Notes: a model not told the origin generated them from the letters alone. DNA of 64,000 nucleotides from an uncultured Boseongicola sp. (GCA_964194555.1 CAXMMT010000007.1:1117-65116); one strand, 5' to 3'. Positions 5,996 to 50,760 are shown, numbered from the stretch's first letter. Made by a program: numbers and translations.

Positions 5996-6277
5996 GGAAC
6001 CGAGTCTATTCCCGACGGTAACGTTCTAGTTGCGGAGCGCCCGCCAGACGCCAATCAACCCAAGCAGCAGCGTCACACCGATCTTGGTGAAAGGCTTGAT
6101 GGTTGACGGTAGGTCGCTCCGAGAACGAACCATCGGGTTGATACCAGTAACGCGAGTTCTCTACTGACGAGTTTCACCGAGTGCCCGGCGGATTCGATCG
6201 TGCCTTCCGAAACCTGACTCCGGCGAACGCTGATCATCGTGTCGATCCGACGCGTGCCGGGCGGGATCGTCGCGTTG

Positions 6278-40541: not shown

Positions 40542-41435
40542 TCAACGTTGGCTGTAACCGGCGACGGCGGACAGAAAAACATGGGCCATGGAGTCGAGTG
40601 TCAACCCATTGACATCCGCCTCGGCGTCAACCTCAACAAAGTCCATCGCTCGCACCTTGGGGTGACGGGCACACCGGCGAACGCCCTCGGCGAGTTGGCG
40701 GATGGTCAAGCCACCGGGACTGGCCCCCGGACATGCGGGGGCGAAGATCCGATCGAGCACGTCGAGGTCAACGTCGACATATATCGATTCACATCGTTCA
40801 CCCAAACTGGAAAGGACACCCTCGACGACGCTGCGAATACCGTCCCGCTCCACCTGTTCTACGGTGACCACACTGATGCCTGCTTCGTCGCAGTAGGCCC
40901 GATACTCCGCAGAGTTGGCAAAGGAGTGGATTCCGATCTGGGCCACGTTGGCTCCGGGAAGCCCGTGCTCTTCGATCAGGCCGCGTATCGGGGTCCCGTT
41001 GGTGGGTCCGTTGGTGAGGGAGCGCACGTCGTGGTGGGCGTCAAAGGTGATGACGCCGACCTGTGATAAGTCTTTGGCCATACCGGCGACCAGAGGACGG
41101 GTGATGGCGTTGTCACCGCCGATGTAGAGGGTCAGAGAAGCTTCGGGGAGCTCGGTCGCCAACTCGGTCACAGCCCCGGGCATTGTTTGCATGTCCAGTT
41201 CTGAGATCGGCCAGTTGCCGACGTCCCGGACGGTCACATCGGCGAGGTTCGCCCCCCACTCGCTATGGAAGGTGGAGAACCGGGTCAGGTGGTCACGGAG
41301 GGCAAATGGCGTCAGGTCGGCTCGCGACGGGGTGAGAGATGCCTTGGATGAGGGCACCCCGACAACCAGGAGGTCCGGATCAGGGTGATCCTGTGCCAGC
41401 CAGACGTCGGCGCGAGGCCAACCCGGATCAAGCAT
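40542..41435 (-). CDS. hutG: Arginase-family hydrolase, probably formimidoylglutamase
   Basis: Mn-binding blocks [14 protein letters not shown] and DVDLDVLD. It overlaps hutU by 8 nt in the same operon. Confidence 0.72.
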
Positions 41436-43095
41436 TCGTGTCGAGCATCGGGATGTCGACTCCGCGATCTCGGGCGACTTGTTTGGCCTTTTCGTAGCCT
41501 GCGTCTGCGTGTCGCATCACGCCGGTTCCCGGGTCGTTGGTGAGGACGCGTTCGACCCGAAACGCCCCCTGCTTTGTGCCGTCGGCCACTACCTGGGCTC
41601 CGGAATGGATCGAGTTCCCGATTCCGACTCCACCGCCATGGTGAACGGCAACCCAGGCTGCACCCGAGGAGACGTTGAGCATGGCATTGAGGATGGGCCA
41701 GTCGGCGATCGCGTCTGACCCGTCGGCCATCGCCTCGGTTTCCCGGTACGGGGATGCGACCGAGCCCGAGTCGAGATGGTCGCGGCCGATGACAATGGGC
41801 GCCGAGACCTCGCCGGAGGCGACGAGTTCATTGAAACGGAGGCCGGCGAGGTGGCGCTCGCCGTAGGAAAGCCAGCAGATGCGGGCAGGAAGCCCCTGGT
41901 AGTGGATCTTCTGCTGAGCCAGTCGGATCCAGCGTGCCAGGGCATCATTCTCGGGGAACAGGTCGAGCAGGGCATGATCGGTAACGGCGATATCGGCCGG
42001 GTCACCGCTCAATGCCACCCACCGGAACGGCCCAGAACCCTCACAGAAGAGATCGCGGACGTAGGCGGGCACGAAACCCGGATACGAGAAGGCGTCTTGA
42101 TACCCGGCTGTCTGCGCTTCCCCGCGCAGGTTGTTTCCGTAATCAAATACCTCGACTCCCTCACTCTGAAAGCCCACCATTGCCTCACAATGAGCGGCCA
42201 TCGACTCCCGGGCAGATTTGATATAGGTGTCAGGGTCGTCGTCTCTCAACCGGGCAGCTTCGTCGACGCTGTAGCCGGACGGGATGTAGCCGTAGAGCGG
42301 ATCGTGAGCCGAGGTCTGATCGGTCACGATGTCGACATCCAGACCCATTCTCAGCAACTCGGGGTACAGGTCGGCGGCGTTTCCAAGAAGGCCGATCGAT
42401 AGCGCCTTGCGGTCTCGCTTCGCAGCCAGGGCAAGGTCGACTGCGTCCTCGATCGAGTCTGCCCGCACGTCGAGATACCCGGTCTCGATACGACGCTGGA
42501 TCCGATATGGATCCACTTCGATGCATAGAGCGACACCGCCGTTCATGGTTATTGCCAGAGGCTGAGCGCCACCCATGCCGCCGAGGCCACCTGTCAATGT
42601 GAGCGTGCCGGCAAGGCTTCCACCGAACCTCTTCTCGGCGATAGCTACAAACGTTTGATAGGTGCCCTGGAGAATTCCCTGAGTTCCGATGTAGATCCAG
42701 GAGCCTGCCGTCATCTGCCCGTACATGATCAAACCTTCGGCTTCGAGCTTCCAGAAGTGCTCGAGGGTGGCCCATTTGGGAACGAGGAGACTGTTGGCAA
42801 TGAGAACGCGAGGCGCCATGTCGTGAGTCCGAAACACACCGACCGGTTTGCCTGATTGGACCAGAAGCGTCTCGTCGTTCTTCAGCCTTTGCAGGGTTGC
42901 CACGATCGCATGGAGAGATTCGAGGTTGCGCGCTGCCTTGCCCCGTCCGCCATAGACGATCAGATTCTCGGGGTCTTCGGCAACTTCGGGATCGAGGTTG
43001 TTGAGGAGACAGCGAAGGACGGCTTCCTGGAGCCAACCATTGGTGTTCAGGTCGGTCCCATGCGGGGCTTGGAGCGGAAAGGTCAGATCGAGCAT
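41428..43095 (-). CDS. hutU: Urocanate hydratase
   Basis: 555 aa. [38 protein letters not shown]...[10 protein letters not shown]... is canonical HutU. Confidence 0.97.
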
Positions 43096-43159
43096 GCGCG
43101 AGACGGAGCCTAACGACGCGTGTTCGGCTGCATTCCTTGTATGTTCGCCGCGAACAACT

Positions 43160-43501
43160 ATGAACGAAGCGAATGCACCCGAAGTAGCCGTCCGCGACGA
43201 TGGCGAGCACGATCGTTATGTGGTTGAGGTCGATGGCGTGGCTGCTGGGTTCACCGTGTATCACATGCGTGGCGGGCGACACTTCTTCGTTCATACCGAG
43301 GTTGATGCCAAGTTCACAGGTCAGGGTGTCGGCTCGGCTCTCGCCCGTTATGCGCTTGACGACGTCAAGGCAAAAGGCGGGAGGATCGTCCCTATCTGCC
43401 CGTTCATCAGGGCCTTTGTCGATGAGAACCCCGAATATGAGGCATTGATCGACCACGAGTTGTGGGACCGGATCGATGCGCGGCTGCGACCCGACGGATG
43501 A
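43160..43501 (+). CDS. GNAT-like N-acetyltransferase (YjdJ / Acetyltransf_CG type)
   Basis: ATG at 43160. ...[65 protein letters not shown]. Confidence 0.72.
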
Positions 43502-43649
43502 TCACCTATTGGTGTGTGGTGAAAGTGGCACTAACGGCGTGAAGCCGATGACTCCATCGCGCGAGTAGATGCGGCCTTGACTGCTATGACGATCAGTGTG
43601 GGTTTGTTCATGGGGAATCGTCGCCTTCTCAGCGCTCGGCGCATTCCGC

Positions 43650-44357
43650 TCAGGTTGGACCTGGCGGGTTCACACTCGGTGCCTCCCGATGTCGACGGAG
43701 GAAGTCGTCCACAGTGCGCTGTGCCTCCGTCTTGATCTCCCGATACCAGAACCCTTCATCCCATGGGTCATCTATGGACGCGTCGAAGAGGTCGTCTTCG
43801 TAACTGGTGTGCCGGTGTCGGATCACCGCCCGCGCCGCCAGCGACGCTCGTTCGTCCAAAGAGAGCATCCGGGTGCGTCCAACCCGTCCACTCCCCACCT
43901 CCGCAGCCCGTGTCGCTGCCTCCCGGGCAATCTCGTCAGCGAGGTCGACGTGTTCCGGAGCGAAAGCGAGGAACCAGCGGATAGCGTCTTCGAGCTCGTC
44001 GCGGTATGCGTCCTCCTGCTTCATTCGACTCCGGGCGCTGTGTTCCCTGTGCTTCGAGCGCTGGGTCTCGGTGGCGGCTGCCTCGGCCTCGGCAGCCTCA
44101 ATCGCCTCTTTGGGTGCCCACAATCCGAGCCGGCGACGATGCGCCCGGTTCCGGCCCCGTGGACGCCACGCCACCCAAAACCTCCCCGCCGCTTTCACTC
44201 GCCGCGTCACAAACGCATCACCCGACGGCAGAAAGTCCCAGTCGTCGGGGATCTCGATCTCGCCATGATCCGGGTTCCACGGGCCTTTGCGCGTCACGTA
44301 CACGTCGAACTGCAGATTGGTCAGATCGGTCTCTTCCATGCCCCAACTCTCGCTCAT
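43650..44357 (-). CDS. DUF2293-like protein
   Basis: C-terminal block RTRMLSLDERASLAARAVIRHRHTSYEDDL...YREIKTEAQRTVDDFL. The start is uncertain: ATG 44357 or GTG 44402. Confidence 0.55.
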   Translation of the reverse strand: MSESWGMEETDLTNLQFDVYVTRKGPWNPDHGEIEIPDDWDFLPSGDAFVTRRVKAAGRFWVAWRPRGRNRAHRRRLGLWAPKEAIEAAEAEAAATETQRSKHREHSARSRMKQEDAYRDELEDAIRWFLAFAPEHVDLADEIAREAATRAAEVGSGRVGRTRMLSLDERASLAARAVIRHRHTSYEDDLFDASIDDPWDEGFWYREIKTEAQRTVDDFLRRHREAPSVNPPGPT

Positions 44358-44401
44358 AATGACGTGCCGCGTGGGTCCCCCGCTACGGGTACGAACAGTC
44401 A

Positions 44402-44414
44402 CGCATAATGCCGG
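44402..44414. repeat. Island repeat core, copy a (CGCATAATGCCGG on + strand)
   Basis: It lies in the gap between the DUF2293 and SnoaL-like genes. The flank CTAGATGTGCGGCC resembles the flanks of copies c/d read on the other strand. Confidence 0.6.
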
Positions 44415-44427
44415 CTAGATGTGCGGC

Positions 44428-44817
44428 CTAGTTGAAGTTCCAGATGTAGCGGGCGATCTTCCATGAGCTGTCGGCCTGTCGCTGCAGAATCCACAGGCCC
44501 TGTAGGACCGACTCGGTGGATTCTCCAGAATCAGTTGACTTTTCCGCCGTGGTGAGCGTGAAACGGTCAAACGCCAATGCTCCGTTGACCACGACTTCCT
44601 CGGACGTGGTGAAGTGGATGGGCCGGTTCGCCTCTGCGAAAACCTTCCCCCACTCTCGGAACGCATCTTTGCCGACTACCGCCGGTTCATCTTCCGGCAT
44701 CCAGACAGCGTCGTCGGTGAAGTAGTTCAGGAAGCCTTCAAAGTCGCCATTCTTGAATGCCTCCGTCGCTTCAACTCGGATCGCGTGGATCGCTTCTACG
44801 TCAGACTCCGCTATCAG
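44428..44817 (-). CDS. SnoaL-like / DUF4440 (NTF2 fold) protein, probable non-ATG (CTG) start
   Basis: The tracked ORF (90 aa from ATG 44700) lacks the conserved N-terminal half. The same frame upstream reads IAESDVEAIHAIRVEATEAFKNGDFEGFLNYFTDDAVW with no ATG/GTG/TTG back to a TGA. CTG at 44817 sits 7 nt after GGAGGAGGA. Confidence 0.65.
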   Translation of the reverse strand: MIAESDVEAIHAIRVEATEAFKNGDFEGFLNYFTDDAVWMPEDEPAVVGKDAFREWGKVFAEANRPIHFTTSEEVVVNGALAFDRFTLTTAEKSTDSGESTESVLQGLWILQRQADSSWKIARYIWNFN

Positions 44818-45045
44818 GATTCCTCCTCCATGAAGACCGACTCACCTCTTCGCATTCAACCCACGTGGAGCCGCACGGTTGTTAGCGGTTCCGGTCAACC
44901 TAACCGAACGATACTCAACGCACCGCTAGCAACATGCGAACCAAGGAACAACCGCAACGCCTTCGATCCCAGACGCATACATAAGTGCCTGATTGATGAT
45001 GGGGGTGTTCAAGACTTCACAGATGTGTGACTGGTCAGTTCAGAG

Positions 45046-45360
45046 CTATCTGAGGCACTCGCTGTCGCTGCGCTGTCCCCAGTCGATGAGAGTGATCTTG
45101 CCGTTCTCAACGGTTGCTTCGTGGCCCACGCCTCCTGAGCACCCAGCCCCACGGGCTGCGGCGATCCCGTCCGCGCCGTAGAAGAACTTGGTATTGAACG
45201 TGGCTGTGCTGCCCGACACCACCATGTCGAGGTATTCGATCCCATCACCTGACCCTTGGATGGCGGGAATCTGCTTTTCTAGGGCTCGAATCTCGTCGAC
45301 TCCGGTAGCAACGCCGACTACTACCGTCAAAACGTCCCCACCGAACCGGTGAAGACTCAA
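45046..45360 (-). CDS. Hypothetical ORF, in frame with the truncated sigma fragment upstream; possibly a decayed SnoaL-like C-terminal extension
   Basis: It is separated from ORF 45373..45684 only by an in-frame TAG plus 4 codons. The tail ...GHEATVENGKITLIDW resembles the last strands of an NTF2/SnoaL fold. Confidence 0.3.
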   Translation of the reverse strand: MSLHRFGGDVLTVVVGVATGVDEIRALEKQIPAIQGSGDGIEYLDMVVSGSTATFNTKFFYGADGIAAARGAGCSGGVGHEATVENGKITLIDWGQRSDSECLR

Positions 45361-45372
45361 ACCCCCGAGTCT

Positions 45373-45684
45373 CTATGAAACCCGGGGCGCTTCAAAACCT
45401 TCCAAGGCCGGCACCAAACCAGGCTCCACCCAAATCTCACCAGACGAGCCAGGCACAAGGTCAGGCCTCACTGGTGACTGTTTCATACGACGAGCCCGAT
45501 CCCGCCCAACCCGATACAAATACCCAGCCGGATTGTCCATATCCCCCACCCGGTCCCAATGCTCCCACCCATAGGCAAACGCCTCAGCCGCCGCCTCACG
45601 GCCCACCTCGTCACCAAACCCTGCAGTCAACGCACGACGCAAACGAGGCTCCACATCAACAACAAACGCCTCGAAAGAGACCAC
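45373..45684 (-). pseudogene. Truncated ECF sigma factor (region 2 only)
   Basis: FEAFVVDVEPRLRRALTAGFGD...AAAEAFAYGWEHWDRVGDMDNPAGYLYRVGRDRARR...WVEPGLVPALEG, then TAG. No region 4 HTH follows in any frame I read. Confidence 0.5.
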
Positions 45685-45761
45685 AGCCGTCGTATCCCTA
45701 ATCAGCAGAACTCCTCAACACCATCAACCTATAAGAGCAACCAACCCCCAAGTCGTACGGC

Positions 45762-45791
45762 ACCCGCAAATCGCAGGCATTATGTGCGGGT
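45762..45791. repeat. Island repeat core, copy b
   Basis: ACCCGCA-aatcgcaGGCATTATG-TGCGGGT. The core is embedded in a 7-bp inverted repeat, about 80 nt upstream of the sigma fragment. Confidence 0.55.
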
Positions 45792-45828
45792 AGTCCCAGC
45801 GAAGATGCTGGTAAAATGTGGCGAGGGG

Positions 45829-46035
45829 TTAGCCGAGGTCTTCGATGGCGACGATGTCTCTGGCTCTGACTGCGTGGACCTTTTCGCCGCCTGCTTGTGT
45901 GCCGTCGCGTCTGGCGGACATCATCATGTACTTGTTGTCATCTTCCGTAGGTCCTGATTGTTCGACGAGCCATTCGTAGTCTCGGTCGGATGTGACAAGG
46001 ACGTGGCCTCCTGTGAGCATGACTCTGCATGCCAT
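45829..46035 (-). CDS. Small hypothetical protein (68 aa)
   Basis: ATG at 46035 is preceded by GAGAGGAA 6 nt upstream. The sequence begins MACRVMLTGGHVLVTSDRDYEWLVEQSG. No family recognised. Confidence 0.45.
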   Translation of the reverse strand: MACRVMLTGGHVLVTSDRDYEWLVEQSGPTEDDNKYMMMSARRDGTQAGGEKVHAVRARDIVAIEDLG

Positions 46036-46170
46036 TGATGTTCCTCTCGTTGGGTGTAGAGAGGCTACGCGCAGCCCCATAAATGATGCTTGGTAACTCC
46101 GTTTAGTGGCCGAACACCACATCAGGACCGAAGAGAGCGATCCGCAGAGCCATGACTTGCCAATTTAACT

Positions 46171-46235
46171 CCCGACCCGCCCATAGCAACCGGCATTATG
46201 AATCGATCCGTGATCACGCATAAGTGCTGCCGTTA
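46171..46235. repeat. Island repeat, copy c (extended ~60-nt form)
   Basis: CCCGACCCGCCCATAGCAACCGGCATTATGAATCGATCCGTGATCACGCATAAGTGCTGC aligns along its length with copy d. Confidence 0.65.
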
Positions 46236-46355
46236 TATGCGGCTTCGATGGACTCGCGTCCATCGTTCACGAGGCCAGCGTCGCGTAGTTGCCCCAGGGC
46301 CTATTGGTGCTCGGCTCTCGTTGGGTCGCCCGGACTGCCCGTCACGGTGCGATGT

Positions 46356-46619
46356 TCAGTCGGGTTCGATTCCGAGTTCGGCAAGGATTCGAGACCGCTC
46401 GCGGGTGTAGCGGTCTTCGCTTATCGCACCGGCCTCGCGTTCGGCGTTGAGCCGGGCGAACTCCTCGAAAAGGGCAGTCTCGTTGGTAGCCGATAGGCGG
46501 GCGGTGTCGTCTGTTCGGGCTTCCCGTTTGGTCTGTTTGGCCTGTTTCTTTACTGCACGAGCTTGTTCCCTCGCTCGCTTCGCGACCGCTTCGCCTCGGC
46601 TTTTAGCCATGCCGGCCAA
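46356..46619 (-). CDS. Small basic/acidic hypothetical protein (87 aa), SHOCT-like C-terminus
   Basis: Lys/Arg-rich N-terminus, then FEEFARLNAEREAGAISEDRYTRERSRILAELG. Confidence 0.45.
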   Translation of the reverse strand: MAGMAKSRGEAVAKRAREQARAVKKQAKQTKREARTDDTARLSATNETALFEEFARLNAEREAGAISEDRYTRERSRILAELGIEPD

Positions 46620-46706
46620 TAGAGTGGACGCTTGGGAACGCCAAGATCGGAGAAGACAGCATCATCTCTGGCCTAGCGGCCGGCTAGCGCGGTGTAGTCG
46701 AATGGG

Positions 46707-46958
46707 TCAGGAACGCTCTTTGGCGATGTTGACATTGAGGCTGCGGCCTTCAAAGTCAGATCCGTTGAGCGCACTGATCGCATTCTGGGCGCTGTCGGCC
46801 GATCCCATTTCGACGAAACCGAAACCGCGGGAGCGGCCGGTGTCGCGATCGGAAATCACCTGAGCTTTGGTGACGGGACCGTGCTCGGCGAACAAGCGCT
46901 CAAGATCGGACGAATCGGTAGAAAACGCGAGATTCCCCACGTAGATATTTGTGGACAT
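46707..46958 (-). CDS. RRM (RNP-1/RNP-2) RNA-binding protein
   Basis: MSTNIYVGNLAFSTDSSDLERLFAEHGPVTKAQVISDRDTGRSRGFGFVEMGS.... RNP-2 is IYVGNL and RNP-1 is RGFGFVEM. ATG at 46958 has an AAAGGAG RBS. The tracked extension to 47225 is rejected. Confidence 0.9.
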   Translation of the reverse strand: MSTNIYVGNLAFSTDSSDLERLFAEHGPVTKAQVISDRDTGRSRGFGFVEMGSADSAQNAISALNGSDFEGRSLNVNIAKERS

Positions 46959-47245
46959 TGCATGCTCCTTTGAGCTGAACCGTCTACTTGTTGGCACCTG
47001 ACAGGCCGAGCAACTCAGATCCCGGTCAGATCGACCGAGAAACGGGAGCACCCTGCTGCGACACCGACGGAACGACAGAAGCAGAGAAAGGCGAAGCACG
47101 TGAACCGTGCAATAAGCACACCCTAACCAATCACCCCCACTAACCACGCCAGCTCGCTGTGGAACAACGATCCACCTTCGAACCACGAGGCGAAGGGGTC
47201 CTTCAAAGGATTCGACCAGCCGCACAAAGTGTAGAAAGTCCTACA

Positions 47246-47302
47246 GGCCCCGCCTATAGCCGGCAATATGTATCCCTCGGTGGACACGCATAAGTGCGGC
47301 GG
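47246..47302. repeat. Island repeat, copy d (extended ~60-nt form)
   Basis: GGCCCCGCCTATAGCCGGCAATATGTATCCCTCGGTGGACACGCATAAGTGCGGCGG, about 290 nt upstream of the RRM gene. Confidence 0.65.
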
Positions 47303-47523
47303 TTTCAAGGGGTCATTGCAACGCTTTCGCATTTGTCACGTTTGGCAACGCCGAAGCCTCCTTGTCTGCTCCTACCTCCATCGGAGAGTCAGAGGGTCTA
47401 AGAGTGTTCCTTGATGCTCCGGGACAGTGGGGACTCGTCTGCTTCGACCTTTCGGGAGGTGAGCACGACGGAGCCGGACTCGACTACGTGACAATGTTCA
47501 CCGTCAACGAATAGCCAATAGGT

Positions 47524-47660
47524 AGCGCATAACCGGCATTATGCGTTCCTCGTAGTGCCTGGTCACGGGCTGCTTCTCACTCGGCTGACAGGGTATCTGA
47601 CACTGAAATGAGAGGGTACGAAAAGTAAAAGGTGGCCCTGACGACGTGATCCCGATCACA
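47524..47660. repeat. Island repeat copy e (core, in the palindrome CGCATAA-ccggca-TTATGCG) plus ~100-nt element R1
   Basis: The core lies at 47532-47542. R1 (47557-47660) reads CCTGGTCACGGGCTGCTTCTCACTCGGCTGACAGGGTATCTGACACTGAAATGAGAGGGTACGAAAAGTAAAAGGTGGCCCTGACGACGTGATCCCGATCAC. Confidence 0.7.
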
Positions 47661-47824
47661 GCGGTGTCGATCTCCGGAGCCGGTCGCGTGGCGCCTGGTC
47701 TAGCGCATGTTTCTTTCGTTGGTTGATCTTGAAGCCTTGCCGGGCTTCTGGGAGGAATACGCTGTGGTTGTGGATGCTGGGTGGATGACCACGATGGCAT
47801 CGTGCGCTCGCCCGGTCGACGAGG

Positions 47825-49237
47825 ATGGAGCTTGTGATGGTTGGCCGTCGGATTGTTATGACGTTGGCGTTTTATCCACGAGGTGGATCGGCGCAGGTGG
47901 TGCGCTATTTGGGCGGAACGCTTGAGAAGTTGGGGCACGCGGTGACGGTGTGTTGTGGGTCGCTGGGGCCGTCGGGATCTTCCTCTCATGCGGCGACGTT
48001 CTTCGCGGGCCTTGACGTGCAGGCGCTTGACTTCTCCGAAGCAGCGACATGGTTCGAACAGGGACAGGATCCGATGGCTGCGCCGGTGCCCTTCCCCCCG
48101 TCGTTTGAGGATCGACCCGACGTGCCCGACCGGGTGTTCGTCTCGTTGGACGACGACGCTTACCACCGTCAGGTAGCAATGTGGCAGTCGCTGCTCGAAC
48201 GGGTCGGGCTACCGGATCTGTATCACATACACCATCTGACCCAGGTCAACGATGCGGTGGCGGCTGTCGGGGATCGACCCACTGTTGTTCACCTGCATGG
48301 CACCGAGCTGAAAATGCTGGCCAAGATTCATCTCGGCGGTGGGGAGCCATGGAAGCATGCGACCGAGTGGGTTCAGCGTCTGGTGAGGGTTGGCCGTCGG
48401 GCCGATCGTCTCGTGGTCATTTCACCAACAGATCGTCAGCTGGCAATCGACCTGTTGGGAGTGGCCCCTTCGCTCATCGAAGTCGTACCGAACGGGGTTG
48501 ACCTCACCAGGTTCGCACCCCTCCGCTTGCCAGGGAGTGAACGGTTGGTCCGCTGGCGTCAGTGGCTGGTGGACAAGCCACAAGGCTGGGATGAGAGCGG
48601 CCAGCCGGGAACGATCCGCTACTCGGACAACGACATCGACCGTTTCTTTTTGGACCCGGCGTCAGGAGAGCTGCTCCCAGTGCTGCTGTTCGTCGGCCGC
48701 TTCTTGGACTTCAAACGGGTCCCGCTTCTCGTCCGTGCCTACGCCGCGGCCCGTGAGGCGCTGGGACAGTTCGCACCGCCGTTGGTGATCTGGGGTGGTT
48801 ATCCCGGCGAGTGGGAAGGCGAACATCCCCACACGGTGGCGACCACGTTGGGGGGCGACGGGGTCTTCTTCGTCGGCTGGCGGGGCCATGAGGATCTCAC
48901 CGCGGGGTTGAACTGTGCTGACGTGTTCGTGGCACCCTCGGTCGATGAGCCCTTCGGCCAGGTCTATCTGGAGGCCATGGCCTGCGGCCTCCCAGTAATC
49001 GCCACCGATTCGGGCGGTCCCCAATCGTTCGTCAACACCGATCAGGCTCGGCCCAACGGCTGGCGGGTCACACCCGACAACGAGACAGAACTCACAGACG
49101 CCATAATCGAGGCGACCTCCGACAAGGCCACCCGACGTCAACGAGGGCGCAACGCCCGACGGCTGATCGAACGCCAATACGACTGGCGTCGCATCGCCGA
49201 GCACATCGACCGAATCTACAACGATCTACTCGCCTAG
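47825..49237 (+). CDS. GT4-family (GT-B fold) glycosyltransferase
   Basis: 470 aa. N-terminus IVMTLAFYPRGGSAQVVRYLGGTLEKLGHAVTV. The EX7E block is EPFGQVYLEAMACGLPVIATDSGG. The exact start is uncertain between 47825 and 47861. Confidence 0.85.
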   Translation: MELVMVGRRIVMTLAFYPRGGSAQVVRYLGGTLEKLGHAVTVCCGSLGPSGSSSHAATFFAGLDVQALDFSEAATWFEQGQDPMAAPVPFPPSFEDRPDVPDRVFVSLDDDAYHRQVAMWQSLLERVGLPDLYHIHHLTQVNDAVAAVGDRPTVVHLHGTELKMLAKIHLGGGEPWKHATEWVQRLVRVGRRADRLVVISPTDRQLAIDLLGVAPSLIEVVPNGVDLTRFAPLRLPGSERLVRWRQWLVDKPQGWDESGQPGTIRYSDNDIDRFFLDPASGELLPVLLFVGRFLDFKRVPLLVRAYAAAREALGQFAPPLVIWGGYPGEWEGEHPHTVATTLGGDGVFFVGWRGHEDLTAGLNCADVFVAPSVDEPFGQVYLEAMACGLPVIATDSGGPQSFVNTDQARPNGWRVTPDNETELTDAIIEATSDKATRRQRGRNARRLIERQYDWRRIAEHIDRIYNDLLA

Positions 49238-49263
49238 CGAGCAAAGGTCCCCGTCGCTGTTTA

Positions 49264-49297
49264 TTCCGGTTCTAGAACGCCGGTTCTAGAACCGGAA
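49264..49297. terminator. 15-bp perfect hairpin after the glycosyltransferase gene
   Basis: TTCCGGTTCTAGAAC-gccg-GTTCTAGAACCGGAA, starting 27 nt after the stop. It contains two GGTTCTAGAACC palindromes, so an operator role cannot be excluded. Confidence 0.55.
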
Positions 49298-49317
49298 CAC
49301 GCTCGCTTGAAGAGGCT

Positions 49318-49404
49318 ACTGACACTCGGCTGACAGGGTGGTTGACATCGGAGTTGAAGGGTCGGAAAGTGATGGCTCGCTCTGACGACGTGGGCTCCGA
49401 TCAG
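49318..49404. repeat. ~100-nt island element, copy R2
   Basis: ...CTCGGCTGACAGGGTGGTTGACATCGGAGTTGAAGGGTCGGAAAGTGATGGCTCGCTCTGACGACGTGGGCTCCGATCAG. It contains the complementary pair ATCGGAG / CTCCGAT. Confidence 0.7.
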
Positions 49405-49424
49405 TCGATCGCGCGTCCATCACA

Positions 49425-49526
49425 CCTGGTTACGTGCTGCTTGTCATCCGGTGACAGGGTGGTTGACACTGAGATCGGAGGGATGCGAAAAGTGACGAGC
49501 GGCACTAGCGACGGGAACCCGATCAC
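49425..49526. repeat. ~100-nt island element, copy R3
   Basis: CCTGGTTACGTGCTGCTTGTCATCCGGTGACAGGGTGGTTGACACTGAGATCGGAGGGATGCGAAAAGTGACGAGCGGCACTAGCGACGGGAACCCGATCAC. Confidence 0.7.
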
Positions 49527-49598
49527 GGGCGCCGGTTTCGTGAGCCGTGGGGTCACGTCCATGGACGCTATGTGTTGCAATAACCACCTGACCTCGCA

Positions 49599-49609
49599 GG
49601 CATTATGCG
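49599..49609. repeat. Island repeat core, copy f (GGCATTATGCG)
   Basis: The context TCGCAGGCATTATGCGTGG is nearly identical to copy b (TCGCAGGCATTATGTGCGG). Confidence 0.55.
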
Positions 49610-49956
49610 TGGTTTGTGGCTCTTCCTTCCCGGGTTGTCGCCGAGATCAAACTCGGATCAAACGCGACCCCATGGAGCGTATAGAGCCTTTCGAGTCTGA
49701 AACGGATATCGGGCCGGCTTGGTAAATCCTGGGAAGTGTCGAGATCCCCGACGTGCTTTGTGGAGATACGATAATGAAATCGAAACCCCACCGAATAAAC
49801 GTTGGGCAGTCCATGTGAGACTGGCATGCGGGAGACATCGAAGCGTGGCCCCGAACCGGTGTGATTTCGGGGAAACGGTTGCGACACTTTCGACGAGGAT
49901 TGTCGTCTCGTTATCGAGGTGCCATGTGGAACGGTTTCGCTAAGTCGAGCGAGATC

Positions 49957-50760
49957 CTATTTGCGCAGCATCGCGTCGAGTCGGCGGTTGGCGATGGCTG
50001 CTCCGACCAAACCCATCACAGCCAGGTAGGCGGCATGACCAATCATGGTCCAGTCGACGAGGCCAAGTGTGAACCCACGAAGTAGTTCGGTGCCGTGATA
50101 GAGCGGTGAGATCTTGGCGACGTTCTGGATCAGCGGTGGGTAGACGTCGAGAGGATAGAAAGTACCGGAGAACAGGAAGAGGGGCATCGTCACCAGGGTC
50201 ACGAGATCGAAGTCCTGCCAGGAGCGCATGAAGGTGGTGGCCGCCATACCGACTGCGCCGAAGGCGAATCCGACCAGTGTTGCGGCCGGGATGGCCAGCA
50301 GCGCCGTCCAGGACTCGGTCAATCCCATGGCGAACATGACCACGACAAACGCTGTGGAGTAGAGGACGCCACGCAGCAGGGCCCAACCGATCTCGCCGAT
50401 GGCGATGTCGGAGGGCTGCATTGGCGTCGTGAGAACACCTTCGTACACCTTCTGGAACTTGAGCTTGAAGAAGATGTTGAACGTGGTCTCGATGACTGCT
50501 CCGTTCATAGCCGATGCGGCCATCATCGCCGGAGCGACGAAGGAGGCATATGGGATCTGTGTGCCGTTTGGCAGTGTCACATCGCCCACCAGCGCACCGA
50601 CCCCGATTCCAACTGCGAAAAGGTAGAAGACAGGCTCGAAAAACCCGCTGAAAATGATCTTCCACAAACGGCGATAAGCGATGTAATTCTTCTCCCAGAT
50701 CCGCTGGGCCCGGAATGGAGTCACCTTCGGAGTGAGCCTGGCAGGAGCCGAGAGACTCAT
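49957..50760 (-). CDS. ABC-2 type exporter permease (DrrB/NodJ-like)
   Basis: ATG at 50760 (MSLSAPARLTPKV...) forms an ATGA overlap with the upstream permease stop. It has ~6 TM. The tracked extension to 51279 is rejected. Confidence 0.82.
   Translation of the reverse strand: MSLSAPARLTPKVTPFRAQRIWEKNYIAYRRLWKIIFSGFFEPVFYLFAVGIGVGALVGDVTLPNGTQIPYASFVAPAMMAASAMNGAVIETTFNIFFKLKFQKVYEGVLTTPMQPSDIAIGEIGWALLRGVLYSTAFVVVMFAMGLTESWTALLAIPAATLVGFAFGAVGMAATTFMRSWQDFDLVTLVTMPLFLFSGTFYPLDVYPPLIQNVAKISPLYHGTELLRGFTLGLVDWTMIGHAAYLAVMGLVGAAIANRRLDAMLRK

Follow-up and report, generated by a model that had tools for sequence, protein, structure and literature searches.

How a cluster of small and partly decayed genes comes to lie between two genes that are neighbors in related genomes, and what the short repeats in its intergenic gaps represent, are the questions raised by a 6.9-kb block, or island (positions 43096-49956), of a 64-kb stretch of DNA, hereafter the window, deposited as originating from an uncultured Boseongicola sp. 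(GCA_964194555.1, CAXMMT010000007.1:1117-65116). The HutU protein encoded next to the block is 82-88% identical to proteins of many Acidimicrobiia metagenome-assembled genomes, and the window is that of an Acidimicrobiia genome. The Acidimicrobiia, a group of Actinomycetota abundant in soil and the sea, are for the most part uncultured; to our knowledge, almost nothing is known of their mobile DNA. The block is probably, if by no means certainly, a lineage-specific mosaic of small gene modules joined at a short palindrome, termed P, that resembles repetitive extragenic palindromic (REP) sequences and bacterial interspersed mosaic elements (BIMEs), with transposition of the IS30 type contributing. 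An earlier note, made from the window alone, had described an accessory island of deviating composition, held together by a private repeat family and built by an unexplained mechanism; the accessory island stands, the private repeat proved half right, the mechanism can be improved upon and the compositional deviation was not found.

The accessory block at the drrB2-hutU junction

In approximately 30 related Acidimicrobiia loci, drrA-drrB1-drrB2 lie directly upstream of hutU and on the same strand, drrB2 and hutU being mostly 22-90 nt and in a few instances 150-630 nt apart. A tblastn search revealed none of the nine island genes at the drrB2-hutU junction of these loci, and the hutU-proximal 'ttaggctc' motif ('taggctc' upstream of hutU) is kept at the left edge of the island. 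Since the drr genes and hutU are adjacent in relatives and the GNAT acetyltransferase gene is absent there, the block is taken to begin at 43096, with the GNAT gene included, rather than at 43502, where the earlier note had set its left edge. As judged from this synteny, the block is an insertion relative to the related genomes.

Unrelated inserts, read by eye, occupy the same junction in three of the comparison loci or contigs carrying homologues (denoted by L-numbers), namely, a LuxR-type ATPase in L003 (6606-9194), GNAT, nitroreductase and PhzF-like genes in L022 (7994-9962) and a sigma/anti-sigma-like fusion in L036 (5017-6663). With different inserts being found at one and the same place, the drrB2-hutU junction is therefore a recurrent insertion hot spot.

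The palindrome P and the IS30-family element that enters it

P is a 24-28-nt imperfect palindrome, CGCmCATAA-N6-TTATGkGCG, with spacers ranging from 6 to 9 nt. Its consensus with spacer, CGCmCATAA-CGGCAC-TTATGkGCG, is predicted to fold into a hairpin with a 9-bp stem and a 6-nt loop (-10.3 kcal/mol, z -4). The core of the repeat (family 1) reads GGCATTATGCG or CGCATAA. At one mismatch or less, the former occurs four times in the window, as compared to 0.54 expected, and all seven occurrences of the 7-mer CGCATAA in the window fall within the island. A position weight matrix (PWM) built from 41 P sites outside the window scored three window places above 8 bits, all in the island, versus 0.27 expected by chance, and neither this matrix nor a P scan detected P in the remaining 57 kb of the window. 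Copies of the repeat are found in six of the nine island gaps. All are intergenic and usually lie just 3' of a stop codon, either singly or as inverted (+,-) doublets 10-21 nt apart, such as those termed e and f in the window and others in L087, L108, L168, L175, and L176. Most window copies are decayed and no longer fold, P_c alone being intact. Doublet e is 80% identical to doublet f, while L175 presents an intact doublet at the position matching f.

The repeat, although confined to the island within the window, is not private to it, as had been proposed: dense arrays of P lie beside the same modules in other Acidimicrobiia contigs, with 12 sites in 9.5 kb of L108, six in 6 kb of L168 and five in 2.5 kb of L087. 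In L170-L177, an intact 24-nt P, CGCACATAA-CGGCAC-TTATGyGCG, is found at both ends of a module comprising the gene for an RRM protein and its partner orf87, with no insertion sequence (IS) present. In 80 hutU-centred loci (1.2 Mb), three P matches of the weakest class (four mismatches) were obtained, which is about the chance rate (~1 per 64 kb). In L108 (614-9557), a marine contig containing the gene for a GT4 glycosyltransferase, the 12 sites accompany a beta-lactamase-fold gene, a cupin gene, two SnoaL-like genes, a DUF6544 gene and a truncated cyclase fragment, these being gene kinds and a stump like those of the window island.

The longer copies of the family-1 repeat, at 47285-47322 and 49574-49611, match DNA beside GT4 and beside a cyclase gene in other contigs and, moreover, each end of two L081 elements, ~1.25 kb in length, that code for a transposase of the IS30 family (NF033563, 285.7 bits) and carry ~26-nt terminal inverted repeats. 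On either side of both L081 copies lie half P sites that, once rejoined, give GCGCATrAGT-GC-CGATATGyGC, the GC being duplicated, which therefore places the IS at the exact centre of the P spacer, with a 2-bp duplication. L089 contains ~200-nt miniature inverted-repeat transposable elements (MITEs) with the same ends, in which the sequence outside the conserved inverted repeat is variable, as expected of target DNA. An initial model, which had the IS inverted repeat ending in the short repeat and the genes carried as cargo in IS-bounded units, was revised because P occurs intact without an IS, the 'tips' of the L089 MITEs vary and the IS is flanked by half P sites and a 2-bp duplication. As such, sequence comparison identifies the longer repeats as inverted-repeat ends of an IS30-family element and the short repeat as the palindromic site into whose centre that element inserts. 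The mechanism left unexplained in the earlier note is accounted for to this extent, the enzyme that moved the modules being a presumed one.

A hidden Markov model (HMM) of the inverted repeat, built solely from ends outside the window (L081, L084, L089, L092, and L094), matches the window at 47287-47328 (E 1e-11; E 3e-10 in 1.9 Mb) and at 49570-49609 (E 1e-6). The end at 49574-49611 pairs with that at 47285-47322 over 38 nt (74% complementary), and the outer half sites of these two strong ends rejoin to a P site. The segment between them measures 2.3 kb and contains GT4, P_c and three copies of a second repeat, family 2. A weaker pair of ends, at 44989-45025 and 45736-45775, encloses orf104 and a sigma factor fragment. 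The first of these, together with its half P (44973-45025), has GTGCCTGATTGATG and a TTCA..TCA..GCA core in common with the MITE end at L089 6045-6093, while in the second (45736-45791), AAATCGCAG-GCATTATGTGCGG matches the right end of the L081 IS; this latter stretch could alternatively be one P site with a scrambled left arm. When the L081 transposase was used as tblastn query, no IS30 transposase remnant was found in the window (nothing better than E 0.46). The IS30-type ends in the window are non-autonomous remnants enclosing GT4 and repeats.

Two further observations concern insertion elsewhere. Directly past the drrB2 stop, the L012 sequence (6114-6140), TCAGGGGGTCAATGACATC, is similar to the core of the IS30-type inverted repeat, TTCAGGGGGTCATTGCAAC, at a level below the HMM threshold, offering a hint that this junction was hit by the same IS30-type IS in another lineage. 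In addition, L172 (1468-1890) and L174 (1837-1860) form an occupied/empty pair in which an element of ~400 nt, with 24-nt inverted ends (CGCTCTyCTGCTGTACCyGTGGGT) and an 8-bp duplication (ACATAACG), lies inside the P site of L172. This element is a second, unrelated MITE family using P.

Gene modules and their edges

Every island unit looked at is found again elsewhere as a separate piece, the DUF2293, RRM-orf87 and GT4 modules at 85-95% nucleotide identity and in varying surroundings. The DUF2293 module is 87-88% identical at the nucleotide level to L178, L179, and L180, in each of which it has different neighbors. Homology ends at 43567 and inside P_a, a site that begins 2 nt past the SnoaL stop and overlaps the DUF2293 5' end. 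All four contexts have CCGGCA-TTATGCGTG and the DUF2293 gene in common and diverge beyond the spacer, where L178 offers a full P, L180 an IS30-type end, L179 other DNA and the window the SnoaL stop and a decayed arm. The RRM-orf87 module is ~95% identical at the nucleotide level in L170-L177, where it is flanked by directly oriented P sites and where the DNA outside differs. At one edge, the eight contigs lose homology to the window at 46177-46231, inside or adjoining P_e2; on the other side, no fewer than four different sequences lie beyond the P sites. For both modules, homology, as read from these alignments, breaks at or beside P.

GT4 homologues of 80-90% amino acid identity are encoded in many contigs. 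Only 7 of 153 locus pairs upstream and 3 of 66 downstream (~5%) display flank homology, as compared to 304 of 406 and 496 of 496 pairs for hutU at similar divergence. The GT4 pairs that share flanks all come from five contig groups (L083/085/086, L092/093, L094/095, L098/099, and L103/104) that have most or all of the compared 3-kb flank in common. The position of GT4, as deduced from these comparisons, is variable. In L087, L088, L106, L108, and L147, P lies 35-70 nt past the GT4 stop and 130-180 nt before the start. Family 2, a repeat of ~105-125 nt, is present in three copies around GT4 (Table 1), while full copies are found 3' of the DUF2293 gene, where the window has its ~30-nt remnant, in L178, L179, and L180 and three copies in L084; it often abuts P. 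Family 2 was rejected as a structured RNA (consensus -3 kcal/mol, no covariation in six copies) and as coding sequence (stops at the same positions in several copies), and RNA structure was likewise rejected for the longer repeats, with hairpin z-scores near 0.

Table 1. Features assigned to the block, in order of position in the window.
Feature	Position	Strand	Remarks
Accessory block	43096-49956		Between hutU (41428-43095, -) and drrB2 (49957-50730, -)
GNAT acetyltransferase gene (Acetyltransf_CG)	43160-43501	+	Pfam PF14542, E 2e-23; absent from site in relatives
Family-2 remnant (~30 nt)	43524-43552	+	3' of DUF2293 module; 79% identical to 49498-49526
DUF2293 module	43567-44414	-	Gene 43650-44357, or to 44402 with GTG start; Pfam PF10056
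P_a	44400-44426	-	Palindromic site CACGCATAA-TGCCGG-CTAGATGTGCGG
SnoaL-like gene, no canonical start	44428-44819	-	SnoaL_2/DUF4440 domain from residue ~5, translation from 44814
Half P (44973-44988), then left-end IS/MITE inverted repeat (44989-45025)	44973-45025	+	Own alignment, weaker than 47298 copy
orf104	45046-45360	-	GC at third codon positions (GC3) 0.70, codon adaptation index (CAI) 0.65
Truncated extracytoplasmic function (ECF)-type sigma factor gene, region 2 only	45373-45684	-	TIGR02983 partial match; GC3 0.57, CAI 0.54
Right-end inverted-repeat-like stretch (45736-45775), half P GGCATTATGTGCGG (45776-45789)	45736-45791	+	PWM 18.7 bits
orf68, conserved small open reading frame (ORF)	45829-46035	-	89% nt identical to L168/L169, frame intact
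P doublet e	46178-46242		Decayed P (46178-46205, +) and P (46215-46242, -, 9-nt spacer)
RRM-orf87 module	46219-47223	-	orf87 46356-46619; RRM protein (83 aa) 46707-46958
Cyclase-gene 3' stump (LipJ-like lipase/adenylate-cyclase)	47147-47240	+	Frameshift and stop; blastn to L094/L095, 76%
P doublet f	47251-47297		Decayed P (47251-47275, +), half P CACGCATAAGTGC (47285-47297); PWM 14.3 bits
Left terminal inverted repeat, IS30-family element	47298-47328	+	HMM match; transposase gone
P_c	47525-47545	+	GCGCATAA-CCGGCA-TTATGCG; PWM 19.9 bits; hairpin -12.1 kcal/mol, z -2.9
Family-2 copy A	47546-47673	+	Abuts P_c; nhmmer E 1e-31
GT4 glycosyltransferase gene	47837-49237	+	Pfam; leader 47663-47836
Perfect 15-bp hairpin	49264-49297	+	TTCCGGTTCTAGAAC gccg GTTCTAGAACCGGAA; 27 nt past GT4 stop; -25.9 kcal/mol, z -6.7
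Family-2 copies B (49298-49410) and C (49416-49539), tandem	49298-49539	+	nhmmer E 6e-23, 3e-29
Right terminal inverted repeat (49570-49598), half P GGCATTATGCGTG (49599-49611)	49570-49611	-	HMM E 1e-6
Weak third IS30-type end, tentative	49848-49897	+	HMM E 0.1; 60 nt from drrB2 stop

The block is organized differently from the rest of the window, much as the earlier note had described. Its genes are short (median 104 amino acids, versus 266 outside; Mann-Whitney p = 0.003), its gaps, of 64, 148, 25, 231, 12, 144, 320, 87, 878, and 719 nt, are long (median 146 nt, versus 35 nt outside; p = 0.008), and its coding fraction is 0.60, as compared to 0.90 outside; elsewhere in the window, 16 of 54 gaps likewise measure 140-660 nt. 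GT4 and the GNAT gene, the latter now falling within the block, are the only genes not on the minus strand. At least two damaged or start-less genes had been reported, and these correspond to the truncated sigma factor gene and the SnoaL-like gene, to which the cyclase stump can be added. The lower GC content judged by eye did not, however, survive a GC and codon-usage profile. Island GC is 0.593, as compared to 0.6035 outside (sd of equal-sized segments 0.0067, minimum 0.589), a dip that is not significant and that is due to the 40% of the island that is non-coding (GC 0.566; coding GC 0.611). GC3 and CAI are native in the island genes, the truncated sigma gene excepted; with no compositional deviation, there is therefore no sign of recent foreign origin. 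In line with the failure of the earlier note to see a tRNA, integrase, transposase or att site, no tRNA or tmRNA was found in the window. No Rfam family reached the gathering threshold across the window, with the island yielding only chance-level microRNA matches.

As for the individual genes, the SnoaL-like gene has no ATG, GTG or TTG separating the in-frame stop (44844) from its domain, which begins upstream of the first ATG, and offers only CTG, ATC and ATA after a GGAGGAGGA. The sigma fragment is 43% identical to the first half of a full-length 220-aa protein of L043, and its composition is pseudogene-like. No Pfam or NCBIfam match was found for orf104, while orf68 differs from its L168/L169 counterparts by 10 synonymous and 11 non-synonymous codon changes, with no gaps. 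The RRM protein matches RRM_1 and NF058537, and orf87 (its 87/88-aa partner) is conserved, with its frame kept in relatives. The cyclase stump matches the last ~31 residues of a 478-aa L094 protein (tblastn), the family of which was taken from an NCBIfam match. In a 579-kb contig (L165, 8001-8252, and L166), the RRM gene (92% amino acid identity) stands among housekeeping-type genes without an orf87 partner or flanking P, with homology to the window being limited to 46685-47142. This may be the ancestral locus.

GT4 also matches Pfam PF20706, 'GT4 in conflict systems' (E 1e-14), and no island protein matches PADLOC defence models. An association with phage or defence was considered and rejected, given that viral contigs contained neither a GT4 relative nor a P pattern and that PADLOC gave no match. 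L084 (9841-10000) and, in part, L087, L088, L094/95, and L147 show nucleotide-level conservation of the ~170 nt preceding GT4 (47663-47836). The one long ORF of this region is interrupted by an indel, and the region has the look of a conserved, non-coding GT4 leader. The hairpin past the GT4 stop has no T-run and is absent from the corresponding place in L084.

Origin of the block and comparison with known systems

In the explanation considered most probable, the block would consist of the following modules: DUF2293; SnoaL; orf104 with the truncated sigma factor; orf68; RRM, orf87 and the cyclase stump; and GT4. P would be a REP/BIME-type extragenic palindrome, often accompanied by the ~120-nt family-2 element, and would serve as a specific insertion hot spot for an IS30-family IS that enters the centre of the spacer with a 2-bp duplication. 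Repeated insertion of IS and MITEs into P would have been attended by rearrangements of the IS30 type, namely, adjacent deletions, inversions and insertion beside existing ends. These, together with recombination between P copies, would have brought modules to the drrB2-hutU junction, leaving gene stumps behind. The array would later have decayed, with most P copies degenerating and the transposase being lost, such that the island would be the old, decayed product of these events in a variable junction. IS30 is indeed known to prefer nearly palindromic hot spots, to produce 2-bp duplications, to insert beside existing ends and to generate deletions and inversions (PMC9333248), and REPs are known IS targets (PMC1525189).

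Several points weigh against this explanation. The island contains no transposase or recombinase gene, so that the agent is one we infer. Around GT4, the likeness between the two strong inverted repeats is no more than 74%, and they are flanked by GC and GG, respectively, with no clean duplication, while the weaker pair around orf104 and the sigma fragment rests on our own alignments. GT4 homology to the window stops short of the P sites found beside it elsewhere, ending a few to ~20 nt past the stop and, upstream, ~50 nt short of P. The joints at 47142-47147 (RRM region/cyclase stump) and 43567 are not at P and look like illegitimate junctions; illegitimate recombination would therefore also have contributed. 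REPs are normally dispersed, with >100 copies per genome (PMC2817692), whereas P is clustered around particular modules, with none in the 57 kb flanking the island (64 kb of the source genome being covered). P also lacks the GTAG head of classical REPs, and no RAYT (REP-associated tyrosine transposase)/Y1 transposase was seen among the called genes of the fetched loci. Finally, the comparison contigs are mostly short metagenome pieces, which may or may not be related to each other.

It is conceivable, although rather unlikely, that P instead serves as the core site for a dedicated system of site-specific recombination (Xer-like or relying on another tyrosine recombinase), in which case the island would be an exchangeable cassette array, the P copies the recombination sites of an undescribed chromosomal cassette exchange in Acidimicrobiia with a recombinase encoded elsewhere, and the IS30-family element a 'site hunter'. 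The dif and pdif sites are 28 bp long and comprise an 11-bp XerC arm, a 6-bp centre and a conserved 11-bp XerD arm (TTATGTyAAnT). P is dif-like in geometry, with two inverted 9-nt arms, an inner ATAA/TTATGT and a 6-nt spacer; the breakpoints in the DUF2293 contexts fall exactly in that spacer; and site orientation alternates in L168 and is inverted around GT4 in L087. The pdif (XerC/D) modules of Acinetobacter plasmids are, like those considered here, small, bounded by short palindromic sites with a 6-nt centre and found one and the same in many contexts (PMC6449649, PMC13141974), and their sites are targeted by an IS family, the IS1202-family 'dif hunters' (PMC10132070). Integron cassette arrays and clusters of attC sites lacking integron-integrases (CALINs) also consist of runs of short genes, most of them in one orientation, with an imperfect palindromic site after each, and have similar gene content (GNAT, SnoaL-like, cupin and small unknown ORFs), with the P doublets resembling the two simple sites of attC. 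Nonetheless, P measures 24 nt rather than 28, has nearly symmetric arms and lacks the conserved outer XerD arm, matching the actinobacterial (Frankia) dif site, CACGCCGATAATGCACATTATGTCAAGT (PMC3025954), at only 13 of 28 positions; the E. coli site reads GGTGCGCATAATGTATATTATGTTAAAT (PMC2731167). Its spacers vary in length, and the orientation rules of pdif are not kept throughout, the RRM-orf87 sites being direct and not inverse in L170-L177. The P arrays are chromosomal, in Actinomycetota, and the IS sits in the P centre and not 5 bp beside the site. Nothing points to Xer involvement, there is no IntI, no recombinase gene was seen in any array examined and no P was found in the drrB2-hutU gap of relatives, where a chromosomal dif site, also considered, is not present either. 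Single P sites of 24-28 nt compare poorly with attC sites of 57-141 nt, and the R''(RYYYAAC)/R'(GTTRRRY) cores of attC are absent from doublets e and f, as read directly from the sequence. Were this alternative true, RRM-orf87, GT4, DUF2293, SnoaL-like and other genes would be moved by an exchange system functionally parallel to integron cassettes and Acinetobacter dif modules.

Less probable still is that P serves mainly as a functional RNA or DNA hairpin (a terminator, an mRNA 3'-end stabiliser or possibly a protein-binding site) assigned to each transcription unit, with P marking module ends solely by virtue of its place at the ends of genes and modules having been moved by unrelated processes. 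P does lie 2-116 nt past the stop of four of five minus-strand units in the window and 7-70 nt past stops in L108, L087, and L088, with the same orientation relative to the upstream gene in ~10 of 13 cases (tallied by hand), and the consensus is predicted to fold into the hairpin described above. However, the loss of folding by most window copies and the lack of a U-tract speak against such a role, which would explain neither the doublets and copies upstream of genes nor the IS ends and breakpoints in the loop, and which is in any case compatible with the best explanation and with other models. That the repeats act as promoters or operators for a shared regulon (e.g., that of an ECF sigma factor), or encode short leaderless or cysteine-rich peptides, is very improbable. 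CATTAT/CATAAT hexamers and an ATG are found inside the motif, and short ORFs begin in some of the copies (MRDCSYP*, MCG* and, at 49495-49725, a Cys-rich ORF of 77 aa). Yet, the orientation of GGCATTATGCG relative to genes is inconsistent, with 20 nt separating it from any -35-like hexamer (TTGCAA), and the reading frames, the ALCV/AGIM motifs and the MTP* mini-ORF included, are not kept, with L084 stopping at the same place and other copies containing stops; homology to P sites and IS ends elsewhere accounts for the motif. Just as slim are the chances of a classical horizontally acquired island (a prophage, an integrative and conjugative element or another integrase-mediated island) that has since lost its integrase. 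Being an insert relative to relatives and containing decayed genes, the block could pass for one, but it presents no tRNA, integrase or att-like direct repeats (the only flanking direct repeat being a weak 29-mer) and no viral-contig or defence-family match, GC3 and CAI are native, and the genes that make it up are common and conserved within the same clade.

Under the preferred explanation, namely, a REP/BIME-like mosaic with IS30-type transposition contributing, P resembles REPs, BIMEs and REPINs (REP doublets forming hairpins) in being a short, imperfect extragenic palindrome often found at gene 3' ends (PMC1525189, PMC2817692, PMC3333891), and further in its inverted doublets, its mosaics with other short motifs (here, family 2) and the entry of an IS into the palindrome. 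When compared to the REP-targeting IS1397, ISKpn1, ISPpu9/10 and IS621, the IS targeting P differs in belonging to the IS30 family, which lies outside the five families (IS3, IS110, IS4, IS256, and IS5) in which REP-targeting IS are known (PMC1525189), and in its host being a member of the Acidimicrobiia. The element itself is a typical IS30 relative in its NF033563 transposase, its length of ~1.25 kb, its ~26-nt inverted repeats, its 2-bp duplication, its nearly palindromic hot spot and its clustering beside other ends (PMC9333248). By contrast, the window holds ends only, one pair of which encloses 2.3 kb with a glycosyltransferase gene in place of a transposase gene. A literature search (Acidimicrobiia together with insertion sequence and palindromic) found no description of such elements in Acidimicrobiia. 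What is new here is the combination of a clustered REP-like palindrome, an associated 120-nt element, a specialised IS30-family element and modular accessory genes.

Conserved genes of the clade, namely, an RNA-binding protein operon, a glycosyltransferase and a DUF2293 protein, would thus travel as discrete modules bordered by a short palindrome. The P weight matrix, the family-2 HMM and the inverted-repeat HMM together provide a searchable signature that can be applied to the question of REP-like selfish repeats versus true cassette exchange outside Proteobacteria. The closest homologues of the RRM protein (P0122-P0135) and of the DUF2293 protein (P0241-P0254) are nearly all encoded on contigs of <3 kb, which fits with assemblies breaking at flanking repeats; the repeats would then be a practical reason for the very short metagenome contigs on which these genes are found.

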